Below, piece by piece: positions 36,244 to 60,913 of a stretch of DNA of 64,000 bases; position 1 is the stretch's first letter; every line of letters starts with the position of its first letter. The position numbers were made by a program, and so were the translations under genes. The notes beneath the pieces are model-generated. The model was given only the letters and a program-made list of their open reading frames with translations. It had not been told where the DNA came from and ran no database searches. The stretch is from a virus. The stretch covers positions 1 to 64,000 of IMG/VR virus record IMGVR_UViG_3300046542_000335; one strand, written 5' to 3'.

Positions 36244-38364
36244 ATGAACCCATTTCTTCTTCCCCTCGACGAATATAACCGCAATCTGGATGTCCGTCAG
36301 GGCTACATCGAACAAACTGCCAAGTACATCTCGTTGCAATTAAAGAAGCCGCTGTCCGAGTGTCTCGACTACGTCAAGAAAGAGACCCGTCGCGGTGGTA
36401 AGTTCGAGTTCAAAGATCCACAAATGCTACAACTGGTCCGTAAAGGTCCGGGTCACCGTGAACCGGAAGAGACCACCTTCCTGGGTTACGTGAACGAGGT
36501 GATCGATACCAACCGTATCCTTTCCCCGTCCATGGTGATCTACGAGCGTCCTGAGGTTGAGAAGTCCGTAACCGCCGAATGGCAGGACGACAACATCGCC
36601 GCTCGTAAGCGCTCCAAGAAGCGCATGTTCGTCTTGAAGCAAGAAGGGGACGTACTGGGCAGTCAACTGGCCGACTATGACCAAAACGCCCGTAAGATCC
36701 GAATCAACTCCGTGTCCGGTATGCGTGGCTTTGAGGGTAACCCTCTGTTCATCGCCACTGGCCACTCCAGCCTGACATCTCTGTGCCGTGCAGCAGCAGG
36801 TTACGGTAACGCTACGGTAGAGCGTTTCCTGGCTGGTTCCCGTCATTACCACACGCCAGAGATCGCCAAGGCCAACATCGTGGCAGTCTGCACCATCGAG
36901 AAGCGCGCAGCGTTTGCTGACGTGATCGATAAGTACGGGATCAACTACCCAACCGTAGACCAAGTCTGCAAGATGATCTCCCGTTCGACTGACCTCTACT
37001 GGAGCGACGTCACCGAAGATGCCATCATCCGTTCGGCGGTAGAAGGCATGACCGCTCTGGAACGTGCGATCTTCTGTTACTCCGGCGACATGTACCACTT
37101 GGCTCAGTACAACGACCAAGTGATCCGTGACATGCTGACCACTCTGATCGCAATCGACATCAGCGACGTTCCTGACGTTGTAACTGACGACGTGATCAAA
37201 GGCATGGATCCTACTGACCTGGCCTATGTGAACGCCCTGTGCGCTACAGTGCTGCGTGGGTCGACTTACGACCGGGTTAAGGCAAACGATCCAGTGGGTT
37301 GGCAAACGATCGGTAAGGTGGCGTGGAAGGTCCAGCAGGGTCTGAATCACTACGCTGACTTCATCACTATGTTCTTTGCGACTTCCCACCTCCCACCAAC
37401 CGTAGCCTCGTTGAAATCCATTCAGCGCCGGGTATGTTTGGCAGCGGATACCGACTCCTCCATCTTTACCTGCGAAGGTTGGGTTGAATGGTACTCGGGT
37501 AACCTGATGCGTGGGGAAGAACAGGACCGTATCTGGTACCTGGCTACTTACATGGTCTGCCAGTGCATCGCTCACTCGTTGGCTAAGCTGTCCACCAACA
37601 TTGGCGTTGAGAAGTCCCAGACCTTCCGTCTGGCAATGAAGAACGAGTACGCGTTCCCTCAGTTCGCATTGACGAATCTGGCGAAGCACTACTACTCCAC
37701 CATGTCCATGCGGGAAGGTAACGTCTATAAAGAGCTGGAGATGGAGACCAAGGGCGTGGAGCTGCGTGGTTCGACTTCGCAGAAGCACATCCTGAAAGCC
37801 ACTGCGGACTTGATGGAATCGACCCTCCATGCGGTGAACGAAGGCAAGAAGCTCAATGCCGGCGATACACTGAAACTGGTGGCGAACTCTGAGCTGGAAT
37901 GCGTCCGGTCTATCCTGCGGGGTGAGTACACCTTCCTGAAGTCGGACAACATCAAGCCAGACAGTAAGAAGATGCCTTACCATGAACTGTGGCAAGACGT
38001 GTTCGGTCCGAAGTACGGCAAGATGACTGAGCCTCCGTACGCTTGCGTGAAGCTGTCCCTCGACCTGAGCAACCAAACAGCCCTCAAGGCTTGGCTGGCT
38101 GACCTGGAAGACCGGGAGTTCGCTGAACGGATGGCGCTGTGGTGCTCCCGTTACAACCGCAAAGACCTGAACACCATCCTGTTGCCGACTCAGGCGATCC
38201 GTAGCTGTGGTCTGCCGATTGAGATCCAACAGGCAGCCAACATCCGCAAACTGGCCTACCAGATCAACTCCGGCTTCTACCGGATCCTGGAATCCATGGG
38301 CCTGTTCATTGTGGACAGAAACAACCTGCGTCTGGTGTACGACTTCTTGGGGCTTGAGCCATGA
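36244..38364 (+). CDS. Family B DNA polymerase, polymerase-domain subunit (phiKZ gp50-like)
   Basis: QNARKIRINSVSG (motif B), AADTDS (motif C), KHYY, KGVELRGS. Confidence 0.88.
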   Translation: MNPFLLPLDEYNRNLDVRQGYIEQTAKYISLQLKKPLSECLDYVKKETRRGGKFEFKDPQMLQLVRKGPGHREPEETTFLGYVNEVIDTNRILSPSMVIYERPEVEKSVTAEWQDDNIAARKRSKKRMFVLKQEGDVLGSQLADYDQNARKIRINSVSGMRGFEGNPLFIATGHSSLTSLCRAAAGYGNATVERFLAGSRHYHTPEIAKANIVAVCTIEKRAAFADVIDKYGINYPTVDQVCKMISRSTDLYWSDVTEDAIIRSAVEGMTALERAIFCYSGDMYHLAQYNDQVIRDMLTTLIAIDISDVPDVVTDDVIKGMDPTDLAYVNALCATVLRGSTYDRVKANDPVGWQTIGKVAWKVQQGLNHYADFITMFFATSHLPPTVASLKSIQRRVCLAADTDSSIFTCEGWVEWYSGNLMRGEEQDRIWYLATYMVCQCIAHSLAKLSTNIGVEKSQTFRLAMKNEYAFPQFALTNLAKHYYSTMSMREGNVYKELEMETKGVELRGSTSQKHILKATADLMESTLHAVNEGKKLNAGDTLKLVANSELECVRSILRGEYTFLKSDNIKPDSKKMPYHELWQDVFGPKYGKMTEPPYACVKLSLDLSNQTALKAWLADLEDREFAERMALWCSRYNRKDLNTILLPTQAIRSCGLPIEIQQAANIRKLAYQINSGFYRILESMGLFIVDRNNLRLVYDFLGLEP

Positions 38365-40786: not shown

Positions 40787-40974
40787 TCTAGTGACACAGA
40801 CCGCAACTGTTGTTAACCCGCAGTCCGCTAGTACAACGGATGAGTAGGCCCAGTGTCTACGACGGTAGAAATCCCACTGGGAACCTTCAATAGCGATACG
40901 AAGGAATCGTACTGAATTCTGGGAATAGGTCCCACTCGCTGAATAAAACGTGTATACACATCTGGAGATGCAAC

Positions 40975-42954
40975 ATGAGCGATACTTTTGTAACTGACGC
41001 ACCTGCTTCCGAGCCACGTCGTGAAGATACCCGTTCCGAGCTGCGCGAAGATACCCGCCGCGACGAACGTGATTCCCGCGATGGTGACCGTGGCAGCCGT
41101 GGTCGTCGCGATGAGAATCGTGATACCCAGGTGACCTTCGCTGACATGTCGCGTCTGCAAGCCCGTCCTTCCATGGGCGGCCTCAGCGACGCGGTACTGG
41201 CCACGCTGGTCAACACCTTCGAGAACGCCAAGTCGTACGACAAGCCGGGCGTTCCTGCTGAAACCAAGCGCAACCTGTTCAAGGTCATCCCGATGGATGG
41301 CTCGCTGGCACGTTCTTCGCAATCCAGCCTGCTGGTGGTTCTGCCTGCTGTAATCGGTGCCGAGCGTTTCGCACTGACCTACATCCTGCTGATCGAACAA
41401 TCCGGCGATGTACAAACCCGTCCGTTGATCGAACGCGGCGAAACGTTTGATGCTCTGGTTCTGCCAGAAGATCACCTGACCGAAACGTACATCAACATCG
41501 TACGTGATCAGGCAGCTGCTGCCGTTGGCGGCGTGGCTCGTGTTGTTGGCAATCAGGTTATCCTGGCTGACACCTTCACGCACCGCACCGAGAAAGAGAT
41601 GGAGCAGATCATTGCTCACATCTACGATAATGCCTTCGAGGCGATCTGCGGGTTCCGCGAGAACATGATCGACGCCAAGTCGGGCGTTCGTTCCTCGCAG
41701 TTCCGTGTTAGCCCGGACAAGATGGGTAAAGGCTCCCGCCTGGAAGTTTCGTTCGACTACACCGGTAAGCAAGTGGTTGATACCTCTGGCCTGCCGATCC
41801 GTAGCGACGTGACCACCAACCTGTACTACTCCGAGCCGAACGGCGACGACAACCTGTTCTCCCGTACCAAAATGGGCGACATTCGCTGCGGCCTGGACCT
41901 GTTCGTCTCCTACGACGAGAAGGGCGAAAGCGAGCAACGTCGTTTCGGCGGTCGTCGCCGTCGTGGTCGTGATCTGGAATCTCCGTTCTGGCAAGCAGTG
42001 TTGAACATCAACTCTGTTGGCTCGGGCGACTTCCCGTACTCGCTGGAACTGGCGCAACTGCTGATCGCTCAGTCGGTGCAACAGTCCAACGATTACCGTT
42101 GGGCCACCATGCTGCGTCCGCGTAGCACCATGGCAGAAGGTCTGAAGCCTCTGATGTCGCTGGGCCATCTGTTCCTGATGAACCCGGACGAAGAAGCTGC
42201 ATGCGTTGCCAAGGACATCGGTCCGAACATCAACGACAACGACCTGGCCGATTACCTCGACCTGACCGTCAAGCCGGACATCGCCTTCGGCATGACCGTT
42301 CCATCCTCGGGCGAGAAGTCCTGGGTACTGTCGATCTACGAGCGCATTGCGATCGCAGAGCCTGGCAGCGAGCTGGACGATCTGATCGACCTGCTGCACG
42401 CCTCGGCTGACGTGCTGACCGGCAACCGCTTCAGCGCGGCGCTGGAGAAGCGTAACCTGGGTAACGACTACCGTCCGGTGTACACCACCGGTAGCCGTGC
42501 TCTGCTGGGCACCTGGTTGGACGAGAACCAGAACCGTCGTGACGTCCGTGAATGGAACGTCCCTGCGTTGCTGGCTCGTGTTGGCGAGAAGAACCTGGAT
42601 CTGGTATCGGACTTCCAGGCTACTTTCGAAGACACCCGTCGTTCGATCGAGTTCAACCTGGCTGAGCGTTACGCGATCCTGCGTAAAGTGGTTCCTGGTC
42701 TGCACGTTACCGGCACTGCCGAGCAACTGGCGTTCGACCTGGACTACCTGATCGCTCTGCAAGACGCGCTGGATGGTGCGAAGATGTCTCCGCACGTTTC
42801 GTCCAACGATGGTCTGTCGACTCGTCGCTCGATCGGTCACGATGGCTACAGCCGCTACGCTACCAGCGAAATCGGTCGTACCCGTCGCAACCGTAACGAC
42901 GACAACGTCGACCGTCGCGGTCGTCGTCCGTACAACGGTGGCAACTACTACTAA
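40975..42954 (+). CDS. chmA: Chimallin, major phage nuclear shell protein (phiKZ gp54-like)
   Basis: 659 aa, very strong codon bias, between gp52-like gene and nvRNAP beta'; disordered N and C tails. Confidence 0.85.
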   Translation: MSDTFVTDAPASEPRREDTRSELREDTRRDERDSRDGDRGSRGRRDENRDTQVTFADMSRLQARPSMGGLSDAVLATLVNTFENAKSYDKPGVPAETKRNLFKVIPMDGSLARSSQSSLLVVLPAVIGAERFALTYILLIEQSGDVQTRPLIERGETFDALVLPEDHLTETYINIVRDQAAAAVGGVARVVGNQVILADTFTHRTEKEMEQIIAHIYDNAFEAICGFRENMIDAKSGVRSSQFRVSPDKMGKGSRLEVSFDYTGKQVVDTSGLPIRSDVTTNLYYSEPNGDDNLFSRTKMGDIRCGLDLFVSYDEKGESEQRRFGGRRRRGRDLESPFWQAVLNINSVGSGDFPYSLELAQLLIAQSVQQSNDYRWATMLRPRSTMAEGLKPLMSLGHLFLMNPDEEAACVAKDIGPNINDNDLADYLDLTVKPDIAFGMTVPSSGEKSWVLSIYERIAIAEPGSELDDLIDLLHASADVLTGNRFSAALEKRNLGNDYRPVYTTGSRALLGTWLDENQNRRDVREWNVPALLARVGEKNLDLVSDFQATFEDTRRSIEFNLAERYAILRKVVPGLHVTGTAEQLAFDLDYLIALQDALDGAKMSPHVSSNDGLSTRRSIGHDGYSRYATSEIGRTRRNRNDDNVDRRGRRPYNGGNYY

Positions 42955-46290: not shown

Positions 46291-46350
46291 TTCGGCCGTA
46301 ACAATCACAGCTGGAGGGTGAAAACCCTCCAGCTTGACAAGGATTTTTTT

Positions 46351-46995
46351 ATGACGCCTCAAGATCAAGCCAACCACACCTACCATGAAATCGTACGTCG
46401 GGGCCTGGAAGGCTTCGACAGTGCGGTAGAAGCCATCAACGCCGGTAGCTCTGCTCGTGTGCGTAACGTGCGGGAGAAGTACTTCCAGGCTGTCATACTG
46501 CCTATTCTCCGCAAGCGTGTGCGTAACGAAGTCTGCGAAGACCTGGGCGTCTGGTTGAACACGGCTGATGGCCTGCACAACCCGATGAACATCGTGGACG
46601 ATTCCGGCGCCCTGCTGTTTGTCTGCCCACCTGCCTTCATCGACCAGCAGCTTAACACAAAGCCGCCTGAGGGCCGTTTCACTACAACCCACCACGTAGT
46701 GCAGCAGCAAGCCGATATGATCGCCAACGGCGACATGCGCGGTATCATGGCTATCGAGGAAGGTATCTTTGAGGCCCACAAACCTCAGACCGAAATGCAT
46801 CATCGCGCTGATGCGATTATGTTGTTGGTAGATATTTACAAGTTCTACCAGATACCTATGGAAGAACTGCTCGGACCTCAAGCCAACGAGATCCTGGCAT
46901 TGGCCAACAAGCGCGATTCCACGAAAGTCGCTTTGCCCACCCCGCAACAAGAAGAGATCCATGACGAACCCTCAGACGATGACCTCATCTACTGA
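46351..46995 (+). CDS. Conserved hypothetical protein
   Basis: AAGGA SD; IVDDSGALLFVCPP motif; acidic tail. Confidence 0.7.
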   Translation: MTPQDQANHTYHEIVRRGLEGFDSAVEAINAGSSARVRNVREKYFQAVILPILRKRVRNEVCEDLGVWLNTADGLHNPMNIVDDSGALLFVCPPAFIDQQLNTKPPEGRFTTTHHVVQQQADMIANGDMRGIMAIEEGIFEAHKPQTEMHHRADAIMLLVDIYKFYQIPMEELLGPQANEILALANKRDSTKVALPTPQQEEIHDEPSDDDLIY

Positions 46996-48364: not shown

Positions 48365-49222
48365 ATGTCCTTAGAATCCGTCTCACGGGACCTCTTGACC
48401 AATCGAGCGGTTGGTCAGTTTCCCCTCTCCATCGCTACCTCCCTGGCCATTGAATCGCTGATCGGTATCTTCCCAGACGCCCCCAGCGAACATCCGCCTA
48501 TTCGGGACCACGATTCCCTCTGGGTTAATATGCGGACACTGATCCGTAACCTGTTGGGATCGCTCAAAACCGAGGACCGCAAACACCTGACCGAGCATAC
48601 CGTTGCCGAATACATCGTCAATGAGATGCGTACCATCGAGACGGTTTGCGTGGAGCATGGCGATGGACGGTTTGAAGTTGCCTTCTATAAGTGCAGCTAC
48701 ACAGACCTGTCCTACAGCTACAACAAGTCCATCCTCAAGGTTCCGTCCACCCCAGGTCAGAAGTTGTCCTGGGCATTTGAGGAGAACGTCCTCAAGGTAA
48801 TCGACGAAGAATACCAGGGCCATATCCCGTACTTGACCTTGACCCGGAAGTTTCCAGAAGTCCATTCAAGGGTGCTGTTGATTTCCCACTATCCTGTGGA
48901 TCTCCTACAGCGGTACAAGTTCGACAACCTCGCCTTGCTGGAAACCCACACAGGCGCCGTTAAGCCGCCGAACATGTGGAACACCAAGCTGAAGGACGGT
49001 CGAGAGCTGGAGCGCATCCCGTTTGATCGTATGACGTTACAGATGTTCGGTGACGGCATCACCTTCTCCCCGATGAATCTCAAGGTTCGTCAGAAGCTGG
49101 TGGAAATCGCCGAGAAGAACAAATGGACTCCGTTAACAACCAAGGAGTTCGTCATCTATTGTGTGGAACAGAACCGAGATCCGGCGCTTGAATCGCTGGT
49201 CAAAGATCTTTACCGCATTTAA
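48365..49222 (+). CDS. Conserved protein, possible 5'-3' exonuclease/PIN-like (phiKZ gp66-like)
   Basis: SIATSLAIE, WVNMRTLIRN, SHYPVDLL, LLETHTG, FGD motifs; synteny. Confidence 0.6.
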   Translation: MSLESVSRDLLTNRAVGQFPLSIATSLAIESLIGIFPDAPSEHPPIRDHDSLWVNMRTLIRNLLGSLKTEDRKHLTEHTVAEYIVNEMRTIETVCVEHGDGRFEVAFYKCSYTDLSYSYNKSILKVPSTPGQKLSWAFEENVLKVIDEEYQGHIPYLTLTRKFPEVHSRVLLISHYPVDLLQRYKFDNLALLETHTGAVKPPNMWNTKLKDGRELERIPFDRMTLQMFGDGITFSPMNLKVRQKLVEIAEKNKWTPLTTKEFVIYCVEQNRDPALESLVKDLYRI

Positions 49223-49281
49223 TTTTACTGTCCGTACAAATCAGTTGCACGTACGACCCTCCACTTTACAGAGAAGTATCA

Positions 49282-50073
49282 ATGTCCAACGGAAATGAGA
49301 AAGCCCGCCGCGATCCGATGTGCCTGGATGATAGCAAACTGCGCCTGTACGGTACCCCTATCCAGGACGGTGCCTACCCTCCAAGCCTTCGCATCAAGCT
49401 GATTGAAAACAATCCTTGTCTGGAAGTCGACCTCGGCATGAAAACCGAGAAAGGCTACCCGATGAAGATCGAGGGCCCGATGGATCCGCAGCAGTTCAAC
49501 ACCCTGTTGATCCTGCTCGAGAAAGTGGCGGCTTACCCGAACGCGATTTCGTTCGAAATGGAAAACTGGGGTCACCCGTTCATCTGGGACCGCGACCAGG
49601 GCAAATCCATTCGCTCCAAAGACCGCGTCATCATTTCGAAGACCCAGGTCCAGAAGCGCGAAGATGGCGTTGTTACCATCGCACTGGCAGCCAAGAAGAT
49701 GCAACTCGTCGAGTTCGTATTCCAGCCTGGCGAATTCCACCCGATCACTCAAGGCGGCCAGCCGGCTCCTCTGAAGATCACCTCGCCTGTTGCAGCGGCC
49801 GGTTGGGCCAAAGCGATCAGCGACATCTACAACACCAACTTCGCCATCAACTGGAAAGAACCTGAGTTCCAGAAGAAGAAACGTCTTGAGCGCATGCAGA
49901 ATGCTCAGAACGGTGGCGGGCAGCGTCAAGGTGGTGGCGGTAACAACTACAACCGTAACGGCAATGGGGGCGGCGGTGGTAACAACTACAACGGCGGTCA
50001 ACAGCAGCAACAACGTCCAGCTCCAGCTCCGGCGCCAGCGTCCGACAGCTTCGACGACGACATTCCGTTCTAA
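49282..50073 (+). CDS. chmC: ChmC-like nucleic-acid-binding protein with G/N/Q-rich tail and SSB-type C-terminus
   Basis: Immediately upstream of gp68-like subunit; low-complexity tail ending DSFDDDIPF. Confidence 0.65.
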   Translation: MSNGNEKARRDPMCLDDSKLRLYGTPIQDGAYPPSLRIKLIENNPCLEVDLGMKTEKGYPMKIEGPMDPQQFNTLLILLEKVAAYPNAISFEMENWGHPFIWDRDQGKSIRSKDRVIISKTQVQKREDGVVTIALAAKKMQLVEFVFQPGEFHPITQGGQPAPLKITSPVAAAGWAKAISDIYNTNFAINWKEPEFQKKKRLERMQNAQNGGGQRQGGGGNNYNRNGNGGGGGNNYNGGQQQQQRPAPAPAPASDSFDDDIPF

Positions 50074-50174
50074 CGGATATAGCCAGTAAACCAAGGTATC
50101 TCGGACTAAGGTACAGGTCCCTCTGGGGCCTGTATCGAGGAATTTATGCCGTTCATGATAAAACTTTACAATGC

Positions 50175-50182: not shown

Positions 50183-50211
50183 ACTAGTGACCACTCACCT
50201 AGGAGTCCGTG

Positions 50212-51786
50212 ATGGAATTTAAAATCTCTACCTACACCGAACGAAGTTTCTCCGCAGTCTCCCTGACTCGGGAACCCGGTACGGAAGGCGAGCTGTTCTT
50301 CCCAACCGGAGGATACTCTACTGCCCGTCCAAACGCTTCCGTTCGTGAAGATGATGAGATTGGGAGCCATCTGGACATGTTCGCGGAGATCAACCAGTTT
50401 CTCCAGAAGTACTTGTCCGAAGATCAGAAGGACCAGCTGTTCGCACACTACGAGAAGCTGGAAGGTATCTTTACTCAGTCCAACCCGAAAGACTGCAACA
50501 TCGACGACTTGACGCGAGCCATCATGCGGGAAGTCAACGGTATCTACAATATCGTGAAGTTCGATCAGTTGCGTGAATTCATCGTCACCAATCCGAAGAT
50601 CCGCTTGCCGCAAGAGCTGTCTGACGATTACGTGACTGAAGACAAGATCACCCCAACCTACAAGTCCCTGACCTACCGCCTCCAGGAATACATCGATCTG
50701 GTAGCCGGTGCGTTGGGACTCCGACTGATGATCCCAATCTGGGGTTTCTATCTGCCGATAGCAGGCAAAGAGTCAAACATCAACATGAAGGAGTTCACCT
50801 CCTACCAGTTGATCATGAACAGCAAGTTCTACAAGTCCACAGTGTTCTCTCGCTTGGATGTGTACGTACGGGCTAATCTCAAAGAAACCACCTACGACAT
50901 CACTGCGGCACTGAACTTCATGTCGTCGGAAGAAATCCCGACGTACCTGTTGGCATTGGCCGTAATCCGTAAACTGTCGATTGCTCCACTCTCTATTGAG
51001 CGTGAGCGCGATCACCTGATGAAGATCTTGTACAACTATATCGATGGCCGGTTTGACCGCATGGCTACCGAGTTCAAACAGCAAGTCGCCGAGAAGAAGA
51101 GCGGTGCTGGGCCAGTTGAGGATAACTCCTCTGTCTGGTCGATGTACAAGATGAAGGAAGCGATCACAGCCGGTGAGCTTACGCTGATCCAGCTGTACGT
51201 GAACGAGTATCACACTTGCGCGGCCGCAATCGATCCGAACTACATGCCGGACCGCTTGGCAGCTTCCATTGCGCACATCGCCACCATTGAAGACTTCAAC
51301 CCAACACGAGCCCAGAAAGGCTTGGCTGCTTGGATCATGTCTACTGTTATCGCCGGTGTGGTGATTGACATGTTCGACATGGAAACCTTGAAGAACAACA
51401 TGGCTATCGCGCAGACGATTCTCTGGGAATGGGGATTCCTGGATCTGGCCATCATGCTGACTGCCCGAAAGGACGTATCAGCGATCACCACTGAACTCAG
51501 CAAGGCTAAGGTTAGCCAAAGTCATCGTGACGTGTTGGACGTAATCAACCCGTACATGATGCCTGACCCAAAACGTGATGACCAACTCTTCATTGCCAAC
51601 TCGGCAGTGCGTGGTATCGAAGAGATCATCAAGGAGTTCATGCGATCCGATTGGTTCATCGACTGCCCGAAACAGCTGGCTGTAGAATACAACCGCGCTG
51701 ATCTTTCCGAATATCTGGACATCTCGCCTAGCGTCCGCAATCGCCTGGCAGAAATCCTGATTCGTCTGAATGATCACGTTCGCTAA
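50212..51786 (+). CDS. nvRNAP promoter-specificity (sigma-like) subunit (phiKZ gp68-like)
   Basis: About 524 aa; synteny; RLMIPIWG, YKMKE motifs. Confidence 0.72.
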   Translation: MEFKISTYTERSFSAVSLTREPGTEGELFFPTGGYSTARPNASVREDDEIGSHLDMFAEINQFLQKYLSEDQKDQLFAHYEKLEGIFTQSNPKDCNIDDLTRAIMREVNGIYNIVKFDQLREFIVTNPKIRLPQELSDDYVTEDKITPTYKSLTYRLQEYIDLVAGALGLRLMIPIWGFYLPIAGKESNINMKEFTSYQLIMNSKFYKSTVFSRLDVYVRANLKETTYDITAALNFMSSEEIPTYLLALAVIRKLSIAPLSIERERDHLMKILYNYIDGRFDRMATEFKQQVAEKKSGAGPVEDNSSVWSMYKMKEAITAGELTLIQLYVNEYHTCAAAIDPNYMPDRLAASIAHIATIEDFNPTRAQKGLAAWIMSTVIAGVVIDMFDMETLKNNMAIAQTILWEWGFLDLAIMLTARKDVSAITTELSKAKVSQSHRDVLDVINPYMMPDPKRDDQLFIANSAVRGIEEIIKEFMRSDWFIDCPKQLAVEYNRADLSEYLDISPSVRNRLAEILIRLNDHVR

Positions 51787-51810: not shown

Positions 51811-53370
51811 ATGACAATGCGTCTATTGAAGTTGAGTGTGGTGGAAACAGACGGCGCCGTTCAAGGCGTGATCCGTCCGTTCGACACCGACATCAAACAA
51901 TCAGACATCGACCGCGTTGTGAACTTGACCGATGATGGTCAGAGCCTCAGTGCGGACCGTCTGGCCAGAGCGATCTCCAGCGGCGACGGGATGATCGTTC
52001 CGTCTATTGATTTCAAGATCGACTCGAAGATCGAGAACGGTTGGGGCGAACGTCGCCTGATGTTTGCAATGGTGGTAGAGATTGCCACCAGCCGTACCTC
52101 CAGCCACTACGAGTACATCGTAGGTTACACTGACCATTCCGGTTACAGTAACCTCGGTGGCCGGGCGAAGTTTGACCCGGACATGAAAATGTTCTTCAAC
52201 TCGATCACTCGAGTCCACATGACGGCAGCCACTTACCGTGGAGGTAGTCAGATCTGGCAGCCGTCTATCAAGGCGCACGATCAGATCCTTAACCGGTCAG
52301 CAATCAATGGCGAACGTCGCCGTACAGACCTGACTCCAGTAACCCTGCGTCCTACCGACTTGTTCAACCGCAAAGGTTCCGAATCCGCATTCGGTGCCCA
52401 CCTGCGTTCGAGCGGTTCCGTCGGTATGAACACCACCGGTTCCTTCAGCTCCCAGCTGCGGGCATCGACCCGTGAGAACAACGACCCATCCCGTTTCCTG
52501 TCCCGAGCGTTGACTGCACACTCCCGAGCAACTGCCGCTCATGGCCGTGGTGATCTGGATGGTGACGACGACGATCTGGTAATGGCAAACGCCTCCGACG
52601 CGGCAGCTGAGACCTGTCTGGACGTGGATCCGTACCTGGAAGAATTGCGTCGTGTCAGCGGTATCATGGATTCCGGCTACATCACCTTCGGTGAGCTCAT
52701 GGAGTTGAATCCTGAGTTTGACGAAGACGAGCAGCTGCCATTCACGCCGTATGAAATGCGCAAAACGTCCATCAATCTGTCCGAAGCCCGTTCCTGGAAC
52801 TCGGACTCCCCTGAATGCCTGGCAGCCACCATTGTTGCCCAGAGCCTTCCGGTGGTGATGATCAACGCCATGTACTCGAAGGTTGATAACCTCATCCTGA
52901 ACACTCGTGCCCGCATGGGCGAGCCTCGTGTACTGGCCGGTCGTTGTACCCCGTTCGTTCCTGGATTGGAAGCGACCTCCACGCTGGAGTATTTCGAATC
53001 CACAGTGGAATCGGTGATCCTCCAAGCCATCAGTCATGGTGGCATGATGGACATCGACTGCACCATCAACGCCAACATTGACCAGGATATCGAAATCTGG
53101 ATCAGTCTTGACGGTGGTGAGGAACACTACTTCCCATTCTTCAGTGCCGCGGACAGTCTGACTGCCCCGACCCTGAGTGACTCTATCCAAACAGTTGATC
53201 TGTTGTCCGAGGACATCGTGAGACTGGCCGAAGGTGTCCGCCATAATCGGGATGGCCGTCGTCCTACTCACGTTACCGAGAATCGTGGCATCAGCCTCAG
53301 CACTGACTTGTCGGACGCCCGCGATGACCGCGATCGTTCCCGCAGCCGTAATGGCCGTCCGGCCTGGTAA
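51811..53370 (+). CDS. picA: Phage nucleus protein-import factor PicA/Imp1 (phiKZ gp69-like)
   Basis: Synteny after gp68-like; IENGWGERRLMF, GYTDH, DPDMKMFFNS motifs. Confidence 0.72.
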   Translation: MTMRLLKLSVVETDGAVQGVIRPFDTDIKQSDIDRVVNLTDDGQSLSADRLARAISSGDGMIVPSIDFKIDSKIENGWGERRLMFAMVVEIATSRTSSHYEYIVGYTDHSGYSNLGGRAKFDPDMKMFFNSITRVHMTAATYRGGSQIWQPSIKAHDQILNRSAINGERRRTDLTPVTLRPTDLFNRKGSESAFGAHLRSSGSVGMNTTGSFSSQLRASTRENNDPSRFLSRALTAHSRATAAHGRGDLDGDDDDLVMANASDAAAETCLDVDPYLEELRRVSGIMDSGYITFGELMELNPEFDEDEQLPFTPYEMRKTSINLSEARSWNSDSPECLAATIVAQSLPVVMINAMYSKVDNLILNTRARMGEPRVLAGRCTPFVPGLEATSTLEYFESTVESVILQAISHGGMMDIDCTINANIDQDIEIWISLDGGEEHYFPFFSAADSLTAPTLSDSIQTVDLLSEDIVRLAEGVRHNRDGRRPTHVTENRGISLSTDLSDARDDRDRSRSRNGRPAW

Positions 53371-53383
53371 CTAGGAGTAAACC

Positions 53384-54670
53384 ATGTCAAAGCAAGAAGC
53401 GGTACTGGAGTTTAGCGCAAACGTTCTAAAGGACGTCGGCGTATTCGACGCCAGCGGTGAAGGGTTCCTGTCGTATCTGGCAGGTGATCTCCCGAAGCCA
53501 GTCACCATTGGCCCTAAACGTCTCTGCCTGCCAGTCCGCGCCATTCTGGATGACGGACAGTGGGATCAGCGCATCGCGTTTGCTCCCTTGGCTGAGCAGA
53601 TCAGTCAGGGTCCAAGCCCTGTACTGAATGCGTTCAAGGAATTCGTTCAGCTGCGTCTGAAAGAAACCTTCAAGGCGGTGATCCTGTCCTTGATGGAATT
53701 GGCCATTGACCAGAAACGTCACAAAGGCCTCAAGGCTGATGCGGCGAAGTTCCTGCAACTGCTGGTCGAAGCTGACCAGAAGACCATGGACACACTGGTT
53801 CGTGTTCTGAACGCGGTCGGCACGGCGCCTGAGAAACGCCTGGTCTCGCTGTTCCTCAAGAATGGCGGTGAAGGTGGTGCACTTCGCAGCTGCGTGGTTT
53901 CCTTCCCAATCATGGAAGACGCCCCAGCTGAAGACACCACCACCTTCTTCGGCGTGAAGATGGCCCGCAAGACCAAAGACAAGCACCTGATCGTCAACCT
54001 GCTGGAATACGTCCTGGGTAACGAAGAAGAGCGTAAGGCATTCACCAAGTCGTCTAACGATGGCGAGGCGCCTTACTTCCATTCGCTGCTCCTGTCCTTC
54101 CACGCAATGGCCACTCACCTGAACAAACTGATTGATCGTCACAAGGCGGGCTGCTCCCACCTCGACGGTCTGCGGTTTGAACTGGCGTGGACTGAGCAGC
54201 TGGTCGATTTCACCAACTTCGCCCACACCCACGGTCGTGTCATTCCGGTACTACCGGGTAACCGTGGCAAAGAGCGTGAAGAAGCGATCAAGAAAGAAGC
54301 GCTGGAACTCAGTGCTGATGACCTGGGTCTGGCTGAAGAAGATCGGCCACGTCGTAACAGCGACGAGCGCGATCGTGAACGCAACCGTCGTGACGAACCT
54401 GAGCGCGAGCGTAGCTGGCGTGATAGCCGTCGTGAAGAACCGGAAGATCGTGGCAGTCGCCGGGATCGGGACTACGACCGTGAAGAACCTCGGGTAGAAA
54501 TTAGCCGGGATGATAGCGGTGGTCGTTCTCTGAGTGACATCCTGGGTCGTGCAGGGCGTGGGCGTGACGACGATCGTGAAGAACGTGGTCGCAGTCGTGA
54601 CCGAGATGGCGGACGTGACGGTGGCCGTAATAGCCGTTACACCAGCCGTCGTGGCGGCCGTGCCTGGTAA
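53384..54670 (+). CDS. Conserved chimallivirus protein (phiKZ gp70-like) with R/D/E-rich tail
   Basis: KRLCLP, FAPLAE..GPSPV, APYFHSLL motifs; synteny. Confidence 0.7.
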   Translation: MSKQEAVLEFSANVLKDVGVFDASGEGFLSYLAGDLPKPVTIGPKRLCLPVRAILDDGQWDQRIAFAPLAEQISQGPSPVLNAFKEFVQLRLKETFKAVILSLMELAIDQKRHKGLKADAAKFLQLLVEADQKTMDTLVRVLNAVGTAPEKRLVSLFLKNGGEGGALRSCVVSFPIMEDAPAEDTTTFFGVKMARKTKDKHLIVNLLEYVLGNEEERKAFTKSSNDGEAPYFHSLLLSFHAMATHLNKLIDRHKAGCSHLDGLRFELAWTEQLVDFTNFAHTHGRVIPVLPGNRGKEREEAIKKEALELSADDLGLAEEDRPRRNSDERDRERNRRDEPERERSWRDSRREEPEDRGSRRDRDYDREEPRVEISRDDSGGRSLSDILGRAGRGRDDDREERGRSRDRDGGRDGGRNSRYTSRRGGRAW

Positions 54671-59392: not shown

Positions 59393-60913
59393 ATGAAGAT
59401 CGATGTATATAGTCATTGCTTCATGATCACAGAGCCGAGCTTTCTCCACAAGAAGGTGATTGATTCCTTCTGCCGGGGACTGGTTCAGTTCGAGATGGTG
59501 ATTACCGAAGGAGTGAAGTCCTACCGGGCGGCTAAAGTATTTGCTTCGGCGGACATCGGCCGGAACTACTATCGCTTACACATTAACGCACTTCAACCGT
59601 TCTTGGACCACGTCTCGTACAATCAGATCAGAGAATCTGAATACGTGATCCACAGACACTCGTTCGCCGTGGAAGAGCGGCATCGGGTAAAGTTCAAAGT
59701 AAAGGATCTTCCTGACCCAAGGGATCCACAACCCAAGATCATCGACCACATTCTGGCCGACGGCCCGAACAAGATCGTTACACTCCAGACCGGTAAAGGG
59801 AAGACCTTCTTAACGAAGTACTCCATGAACCAACTGGGGCTGCGGTCTTGCTTCTTCATGAAGGGTGGGTTTATCGATCGCTGGGTACCTGACATGGAAG
59901 AGTCTTTCCATTTCAAGGGCGGTGAGCTGTTGGTCGTACGCGGTGGTAAATCGCTGTCGGCTGTCATGCACATGGCTATCGATGGAGAGCTTGGTCCTGC
60001 CAAGTGTATCTTCATCTCCATCAACACGTATTCGGCGTACATCAAGGACTTCGAAGAGCACGGCGTGACGGAAACCTATCCGATTGCACCTGGCGAATTC
60101 TTCAGTCGTCTGAACATCGGGATGGCAGCACTCGATGAGGGTCACCAAAACCCCCATCAGGTAATGAAGCTGTTTTGCTACACCCATATCCCAAAATTCG
60201 TCACCCTGTCGGCAACCCTGGATACCATGGATGCCTTCATGACGAAGATGTACGAACTGATGTATCCCCGCAATGAGCGCTTTAACGGCGACTATTACGA
60301 CGTGTACATCAAGGTGTGCGCTATCAAGTACCAACTGAACAGGCCTAAGAACCTGCGATGGAAGGGATTTGGTGGAGCTTACAACCACACCGCGTACGAA
60401 GCCTCCATGATGACTGCCAAGAATCGGGTGGAACTAAAGAACTACCTGGATCTCATCACTTGGTGCGTGGACGACAAGTTTGTCAAGATCATGGAGAAAG
60501 GTCAGAAGATGTTGGTCTTCTGTGGTACGGTTAAGTTCTGTACGTTGGTGCAGAAGTACCTCCAGAAGAAGTTCCCGAACCTCGTGATCGGGCGCTACGT
60601 CTCTGGCGACAAGATGTCCGTGTTTGATGACTCCGATATCGTGGTTAGTACTGTACTCTCCGCAGGTACTGCGGTAGACATCAAGAACCTACGCGTCGGT
60701 CTGATGACCACGGCGATCAACTCCCAGCAGTCGAACGAACAAACCCTGGGCCGTACACGTCGACTGAAAGGTTGGCCGGACGTTACCCCAGAGTTCCTAT
60801 ACTTCGTCTGCACTTCGATCGATAAACACGTCAGATACCATGACGCAAAGATCGAAGCATTCAAATCCAAGGTCTTGTACCACGGTGTGGAGCAAGCACC
60901 GATTAGTGTGTAA
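59393..60913 (+). CDS. SF2 DEAD/H-like helicase (phiKZ gp75-like)
   Basis: LQTGKGKT, DEGH, LSAT, QTLGRTRR. Confidence 0.9.
   Translation: MKIDVYSHCFMITEPSFLHKKVIDSFCRGLVQFEMVITEGVKSYRAAKVFASADIGRNYYRLHINALQPFLDHVSYNQIRESEYVIHRHSFAVEERHRVKFKVKDLPDPRDPQPKIIDHILADGPNKIVTLQTGKGKTFLTKYSMNQLGLRSCFFMKGGFIDRWVPDMEESFHFKGGELLVVRGGKSLSAVMHMAIDGELGPAKCIFISINTYSAYIKDFEEHGVTETYPIAPGEFFSRLNIGMAALDEGHQNPHQVMKLFCYTHIPKFVTLSATLDTMDAFMTKMYELMYPRNERFNGDYYDVYIKVCAIKYQLNRPKNLRWKGFGGAYNHTAYEASMMTAKNRVELKNYLDLITWCVDDKFVKIMEKGQKMLVFCGTVKFCTLVQKYLQKKFPNLVIGRYVSGDKMSVFDDSDIVVSTVLSAGTAVDIKNLRVGLMTTAINSQQSNEQTLGRTRRLKGWPDVTPEFLYFVCTSIDKHVRYHDAKIEAFKSKVLYHGVEQAPISV

Follow-up and report, generated by a model that had tools for sequence, protein, structure and literature searches.

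The gene described here raises the question of why a phage protein should end exactly as a bacterial SSB does. It lies in the window, the whole 64,000-nucleotide stretch analysed, which comes from a 74.7-kb IMG/VR fragment estimated to be ~30% complete, and its translated product closes with ...PAPAPAPASDSFDDDIPF* (also cited as ...QQQQQRPAPAPAPASDSFDDDIPF-stop). An initial annotation had placed the protein with ChmC/gp67 and had proposed that it mimics host SSB in order to recruit or sequester host DNA-metabolism enzymes at the phage nucleus. The identity of the gene, the nature of its folded domain and the distribution of its tail each bear on that proposal.

In an uncultured nucleus-forming jumbo phage of the Chimalliviridae, this gene is the orthologue of ChmC/Imp6. 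The product matches phrog_3284 (E 1.6e-36) and, by tblastn, Goslar gp176 (31.8% identity, E 2e-14), and its family profile aligns to phiKZ gp67 over 240 columns (hhalign probability 100%, E 8e-41). Goslar gp176, PhiPA3 gp61 and phiKZ gp67 were designated ChmC by Enustun et al. 2024 (PMC11077065), and the ChmC (Chimallin C)/Imp6 family of Chimalliviridae also includes 201phi2-1 gp123 (PMC11077065; 10.1101/2024.03.27.586873). The assignment made in the initial annotation is thus borne out both by sequence and by position, as the gene precedes a gp68-like nvRNAP subunit gene and PicA (Table 1); the order gp66-like, ChmC, gp68-like nvRNAP, PicA/Imp1-like is common to phiKZ, PhiPA3, 201phi2-1, DT01, RSF1, and Noxifer. 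The window contains a chimallin gene and is therefore from a chimallivirus, and its core block also holds a virion RNAP beta-like gene, a terminase, nvRNAP subunits, an SbcD-like nuclease, and a DnaB-type helicase. A close ChmC homologue was found in a compost metagenome. As a gene it is simply one more member of the known ChmC family; what is new is the link between its tail and SSB.

Table 1. Positions of the ChmC gene, its parts and selected neighbours in the window
Feature	Position	Strand	Basis
phiKZ-type DNA polymerase	36244–38364		assigned in the core block
Chimallin (ChmA) nuclear shell protein	40975..42954	+	phrog_4795 'nuclear shell protein', E 2.3e-38
phiKZ gp66-like upstream neighbour	48365..49222	+	phrog_3229, E 6.6e-80
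ChmC/Imp6 orthologue, 263 aa	49282..50073, stop included	+	ATG-start ORF; phrog_3284, Goslar gp176 and phiKZ gp67 homology
Whirly-type folded domain (modelled), residues 13–211	49318..49914	+	AF2 pLDDT >90, VIA-align, Foldseek
Disordered G/N/Q/P-rich linker, residues 212–254	49915..50043	+	pLDDT 36–51; composition; clade identity 0.21
Acidic tip DSFDDDIPF, residues 255–263	50044..50070	+	same 9-mer as at the C-terminus of Pseudomonas and Cellvibrionaceae SSBs
12-bp GC-rich hairpin, possible terminator or stabiliser	50110..50136	+	-25.7 kcal/mol, z -1.9 (modest)
nvRNAP subunit, phiKZ gp68-like	50209..51786	+	phrog_3209, E 1.8e-85; tblastn to PHIKZ068, PhiPA3 062
PicA/Imp1-like nuclear import factor, phiKZ gp69 position	51811..53370	+	phrog_3141, E 2.6e-60; synteny

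Reading the gene on the correct strand requires some care in this DNA. When both strands were surveyed over the whole window, many long antisense ORFs were seen to oppose real genes, among them 49279–50094 facing ChmC and 40828–42840 facing chimallin; these shadow ORFs arise because the DNA is 54% GC with high GC3, and a naive longest-ORF caller chooses the wrong strand here. We rejected 49279–50094 as the gene, as the PHROG, Goslar, and phiKZ homologies all belong to the plus-strand product. The GC-rich hairpin downstream starts 37 nt past the ChmC stop and may act as a phage-type terminator or stabilise the mRNA of this highly expressed gene. A scan for consensus promoters and terminators around the ChmC gene gave nothing above shuffled sequences, the hairpin being missed because it has no T run. 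In phage Moabite a terminator is annotated directly 3' of ChmC. The motif ACTTTACA, which precedes both ChmC and the gene after it, has three matches against 1.2 expected, which is not significant. Directly 3' of the nvRNAP genes, at 59393–60913 (+), lies a DnaB-type helicase of 506 aa (phrog_16, E 5e-30) that probably serves chimalliviruses as their divergent replicative helicase; it ends in ...EQAPISV, without an acidic tip.

In an AF2 model built on a 64-sequence alignment, residues 13–211 fold at pLDDT >90 and residues 212–263 are disordered. The stretch 206–255 is rich in glycine and amide residues (G15, N10, Q9, A5, P4), and linker length varies among members of the ChmC clade. Translation, model and composition together confirm the layout first described for this protein, a folded domain followed by a G/N/Q/P-rich linker and DSFDDDIPF-stop. 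The four best VIA-align matches of the model all belong to the Whirly superfamily: StWhy2 (Z 9.1, rmsd 3.5 Å over 131 residues), PBF-2 (Z 8.2), MRP1 (Z 7.2), and Pur-alpha (Z 6.8). Foldseek against the PDB also ranks MRP1/2 and PBF-2 first, at a weak E of ~0.01, with nothing at E ≤ 0.001. Pfam assigns the protein no family at E ≤ 0.1, and hence no PF00436 OB-fold domain. The ChmC domain is therefore modelled as a Whirly fold and not an OB fold, in agreement with the initial annotation; a simple OB-fold SSB is not what we found.

The nearest structures, namely plant Whirly proteins (StWhy2, PBF-2/p24), trypanosome MRP1/MRP2 and Pur-alpha, are all binders of single-stranded DNA or RNA, and the Whirly proteins and MRP1/2 are tetramers like PhiPA3 ChmC, although their sequence similarity to ChmC is undetectable. 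We know of no Whirly, MRP or Pur-alpha protein that carries an SSB-type linker and tip. The likeness to bacterial SSB (PF00436) is of another kind: PhiPA3 ChmC is likewise a tetrameric single-strand binder, and the protein described here shares with SSB a disordered linker rich in G, Q and P, and the same acidic tip. In bacterial SSB the tip contacts its partners in a hydrophobic pocket rimmed by basic residues. The bacterial SSB linker drives condensate formation, as reported for the ChmC linker. Bacterial SSB differs, however, in having an OB fold, and its sequence homology to ChmC is confined to the low-complexity tail. Searches of PDB sequences with the protein and with its family profile returned no solved ChmC and only an SSB tail, the sole significant match of the profile being the linker and tip of a bacterial SSB (7f2n_A, E 1.6e-4).

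The tail is not special to this protein: an acidic SSB-like ending is the consensus of the ChmC family. Among 62 homologues collected by a word-indexed search, 65% end in D-[DE]-[DE]-[ILVMF]-P-hydrophobic and 15 in exactly DDDIPF. An exhaustive search yielded 145 representatives at 50% identity, in which the counts at positions -6 to -1 are D83, D103, D107, I70/L28, P110, and F77/M22/W17/L13; the last residue is hydrophobic in 94%, and the consensus reads D-D-D-[IL]-P-[FMWL]. Within the 46-member clade around this protein, mean pairwise identity is 0.69 for the last eight residues, compared with 0.46 for the fold, and falls to 0.21 in the linker. No other segment of ChmC is as constrained in this clade as the tip, which is under purifying selection. 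Its SSB-like character is also far beyond chance: in each of two complete relatives, G001 (264 kb) and G002 (267 kb), the DNA pattern for DDDIPF-stop has a single match, which lies in ChmC, and the same pattern reversed as a control is absent from both.

Such regularity bears on a reading close to that of Enustun et al. 2024, in which the acidic end has no specific partner, serves solubility and damps non-specific nucleic-acid binding, and resembles the SSB tip only in composition. The tails of bacterial SSB, T4 gp32, and T7 gp2.5 likewise act in cis, and some ChmC tips are degenerate (201phi2-1 ELASFDW, pVa-21 DDYLP). The ChmC paper calls the last ~15 residues S/D/E-rich, cites electronegative clusters, and nowhere mentions SSB (PMC11077065); the degenerate tips of the model phages may explain why it describes the end only as an 'electronegative cluster'. 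Pure electrostatics, however, gives no reason for a set order, D-D-D-[IL]-P-[aromatic or hydrophobic], right at the C-terminus, and proline at -2 in 110 of the 145 representatives, the hydrophobic end and a tip more conserved than the fold all speak against it. We regard this reading as distinctly unlikely.

Two further observations concern protein ends elsewhere in the window. A second acidic-aromatic tip, ...SDDDLIY, closes a protein of ~214 aa encoded at 46318–46995 (+), whose real start is probably the Met at ~46351 and whose gene adjoins, upstream, and overlaps that of the SbcD-like nuclease; the protein belongs to phrog_5171, to which PHROG assigns no function. The tip is kept in 17 of 17 homologues (59–97% identity), while the linker before it varies, and among the 1134 ORFs of G001 only this protein and ChmC have an acidic-end tip of the kind. 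By tblastn the protein has no cultured-phage homologue. Genes syntenic with it nevertheless have acidic ends (DT01 ...ADDDIEPL, Goslar ...NLEEF, phiKZ ...GDEYED). Folded in a search for a hidden OB-fold SSB, the 214-aa protein gave a model too poor to read (pLDDT 46). By analogy with the tails of T7 gp2.5 and gp4, the ChmC and ...SDDDLIY tips may share one receptor. Tails of the opposite charge occur in the PicA/Imp1-like protein (51811–53370) and its gp70-like neighbour (53384–54670), both on the plus strand, which carry basic, Arg/Gly/Ser/Asp-rich disordered tails ending in ...RNGRPAW and ...RRGGRAW, respectively; shell-associated proteins may therefore have complementary tails.

The exact form of the tip invites a comparison with host SSBs. 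A back-translated scan of bacterial contigs for DSFDDDIPF-stop matched at least 120 contigs, and in 119 of the 120 matches listed this exact ending closes an ORF of SSB length. Of the 80 titled matches listed, ~50 are from Pseudomonas, Stutzerimonas, and other Pseudomonadaceae and ~15 from Cellvibrionaceae and allies, so that the initial annotation is right, among these matches, that Pseudomonas SSB ends in DSFDDDIPF. Further, 29 SSBs drawn from an even sample of 151 Pseudomonadota genomes show how fixed the host end is: 28 of 29 end in [IL]PF and 22 in DDDIPF, with F at -1 in 28 and I at -3 in 27. DDDIPF is pan-proteobacterial by this sample, and the ChmC tips of the 145 representatives vary more than these host tips do. 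The Pseudomonas-like host proposed earlier is accordingly upheld only in part: the 9-mer is that of SSBs from Pseudomonas and Cellvibrionaceae, which makes a Pseudomonadales host plausible, but the hint is weak because DDDIPF is so widespread, because the ChmC tips of cultured phages do not track their hosts, and because the taxonomic picture is that of the matches listed.

A shared 9-mer could in principle reflect recent recombination, in which the clade took up the 3' end of a host ssb and the tail is a passenger. The nine residues are identical, and the RPAP/Q-rich stretch before the tip resembles that of Pseudomonas SSBs. At the DNA level, though, identity to Pseudomonas ssb is limited to the 29–31 nt that encode the tip, of which 17 positions were fixed by the search pattern. 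Identity thus ends at the tip and there is no sign of recent capture; moreover, the motif aligns across the whole ChmC family, distant cultured phages included. Capture of an ssb 3' end was rejected on the DNA-level search, and we consider a passenger tail highly improbable.

Mimicry of the host, as first proposed, deserves fuller weighing. On this account the tip copies the host SSB tip, so that the abundant ChmC recruits or sequesters host enzymes such as ExoI, RecQ, PriA, RNase HI, and DnaG, whether at the phage nucleus or away from it, and may hand some of them on to the importer. The 9-mer is the SSB end in at least 119 bacterial contigs, mostly of Pseudomonas, Stutzerimonas, and Cellvibrionaceae, and exact DSFDDDIPF is kept in clade members down to ~45% identity. 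Chimalliviruses have no identified primase or clamp, and E. coli DnaG binds the SSB tip (PMC5872125). The importer Imp1 is a binding partner of ChmC/Imp6, and TopA is one host protein that does get imported (10.1101/2024.03.27.586873). There is also a precedent in prophage DUF669 SSB-like proteins with DDDIPF, for which mimicry of the bacterial SSB tip has been suggested (PMC13687109).

The cultured phages argue against extending this account to the family. Their tips include GFDDEIPNF in PhiPA3 and AFDEDMPSF in phiKZ, both phages of P. aeruginosa that insert one residue between Pro and Phe, AFDGLAF in Goslar on E. coli, FDDDVPL in DT01, FDNDIPW in Moabite, and DFDDISF in RSF1. None of the ten cultured chimalliviruses examined carries canonical DDDIPF, compared with [IL]PF in nearly all the Pseudomonadota SSBs, and M, W or L is a frequent last residue in the family. 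Furthermore, most host proteins are kept out of the phage nucleus, and the DNA bears no mark of recent capture. As a family-wide role mimicry is unlikely, because none of the ten has the canonical tip; for the present clade, whose tip is a letter-perfect SSB tip, cross-binding to host SSB partners is also possible, judging by sequence. Taken as an explanation of the tip as a whole, we think mimicry rather unlikely. The greater variability of ChmC tips relative to host tips, together with the lack of DDDIPF in the ten cultured phages, suggests a phage-encoded receptor that co-evolves with the tip, and fits a receptor set narrower than that of SSB.

Published work on ChmC constrains what the tip could do. 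The studied ChmC/Imp6 proteins are homologous over their full length and share the gene position, the Whirly fold, an N/G-rich disordered C-terminal region and an acidic end with our protein, but are only ~21–32% identical to it, with tips that are degenerate there and canonical DDDIPF here. Tetramer formation, ssRNA and ssDNA binding, condensates, nuclear-shell localisation and PicA/Imp1 binding are known, between them, from the PhiPA3, Goslar, and phiKZ proteins (PMC11077065; 10.1101/2024.03.27.586873). PhiPA3 ChmC is a homotetramer that binds ssRNA with a Kd of 58 nM and ssDNA with a Kd of 184 nM (PMC11077065), an approximately threefold preference for RNA that sets it apart from bacterial SSB. 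Of the six basic residues changed in the PhiPA3 RNA-binding mutants, four are not conserved and only R37 and K62 are, and we therefore infer rather than observe nucleic-acid binding by this orthologue. Without residues 204–251, PhiPA3 ChmC no longer formed condensates or localised to the nuclear shell, yet it still bound RNA and remained a tetramer (PMC11077065); the deletion took linker and tip together, so these phenotypes may stem from the linker alone.

As to partners, phiKZ gp67 was identified as Imp6, a direct binder of the importer Imp1/PicA, and it still bound Imp1 with an apparent C-terminal FLAG tag (10.1101/2024.03.27.586873); this binding therefore probably needs no free C-terminus. 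It gives the import-adaptor idea of the initial annotation a footing in the literature, for the protein rather than for its tip. Complex prediction of the ChmC tail (residues 206–263) with the PicA/Imp1 homologue of the window scored 0.00 in two runs without controls, which is evidence neither way. Goslar ChmC co-purifies with Rhc, nvRNAP, and DNA polymerase, and gp67 was passed over by an all-against-Rhc AF2 screen in phiKZ (PMC13648698).

Other phages offer parallels for a single-strand binder with a docking tail. T7 gp2.5 and T4 gp32 bind single strands and have an acidic tail, Phe-ended in T7, that docks replisome partners and acts in cis. These proteins and those with DUF669 have the OB fold, whereas ChmC does not, sits at or in the phage nucleus, and has a documented role with mRNA. 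We looked for another phage SSB with three Pfam models (PF00436, gp32-type, and gp2.5-type), which a divergent SSB could escape. PF00436 has no match at E ≤ 1 in the 74.7-kb record, in the 100%-complete G001 and G002 (whose ChmC proteins are 88% and 84% identical to this one), or in Goslar, phiKZ, PhiPA3, 201phi2-1, and DT01; the gp32- and gp2.5-type models gave no match either. Iyer et al. 2021 assign a classic OB SSB to jumbo phages of group 2 but list none for the phiKZ group (PMC7824862). The replisome components named in two 2026 preprints on chimalliviruses are DNAP-N, DNAP-C, Rhc, and a DnaB-like helicase; these preprints note that primase and clamp are lacking and mention no SSB, and a link between SSB and ChmC or chimalliviruses is likewise absent from the searchable literature.

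It is tempting to see in ChmC the missing replicative SSB of nucleus-forming phages, a Whirly protein convergent with bacterial SSB in its whole design (a tetramer with a condensate-forming linker and a DDDIPF-type tip). Such a protein would coat nascent mRNA and lagging-strand ssDNA in the phage nucleus, and its tip would organise the replisome (the split DNA polymerase, Rhc, and the DnaB-like helicase) or a borrowed host primase. We put this forward tentatively, as a possibility that we would not yet call probable.

ChmC is essential, and few early proteins of nucleus-forming phages are more abundant. The reading that we favour, with modest confidence, takes ChmC for an analogue of bacterial SSB built on a Whirly fold, and its tip for a docking or autoregulatory peptide. 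The Whirly domain, a tetramer in PhiPA3, would bind single-stranded nucleic acid, and the G/N/Q-rich linker would drive condensation as it does in PhiPA3. In free ChmC the tip may fold back onto the basic nucleic-acid surface; when, in or at the phage nucleus, ChmC covers phage mRNA and probably also ssDNA, the tip would become exposed and could recruit one or a few partner proteins, working like the SSB tip. Both protein binding by the tip and the identity of its partners we infer; across the family the likeliest partners would be factors of the nucleus or its shell, encoded by the phage and co-evolving with the tip.

The tip is a precise and cheap handle with which condensate formation can be separated from partner docking. 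It could reveal a receptor in the phage nucleus, and whether ChmC doubles as the phage SSB. The value of the finding lies in a previously unreported link between the ChmC tail and SSB, in a family of phages for which no SSB has been named.
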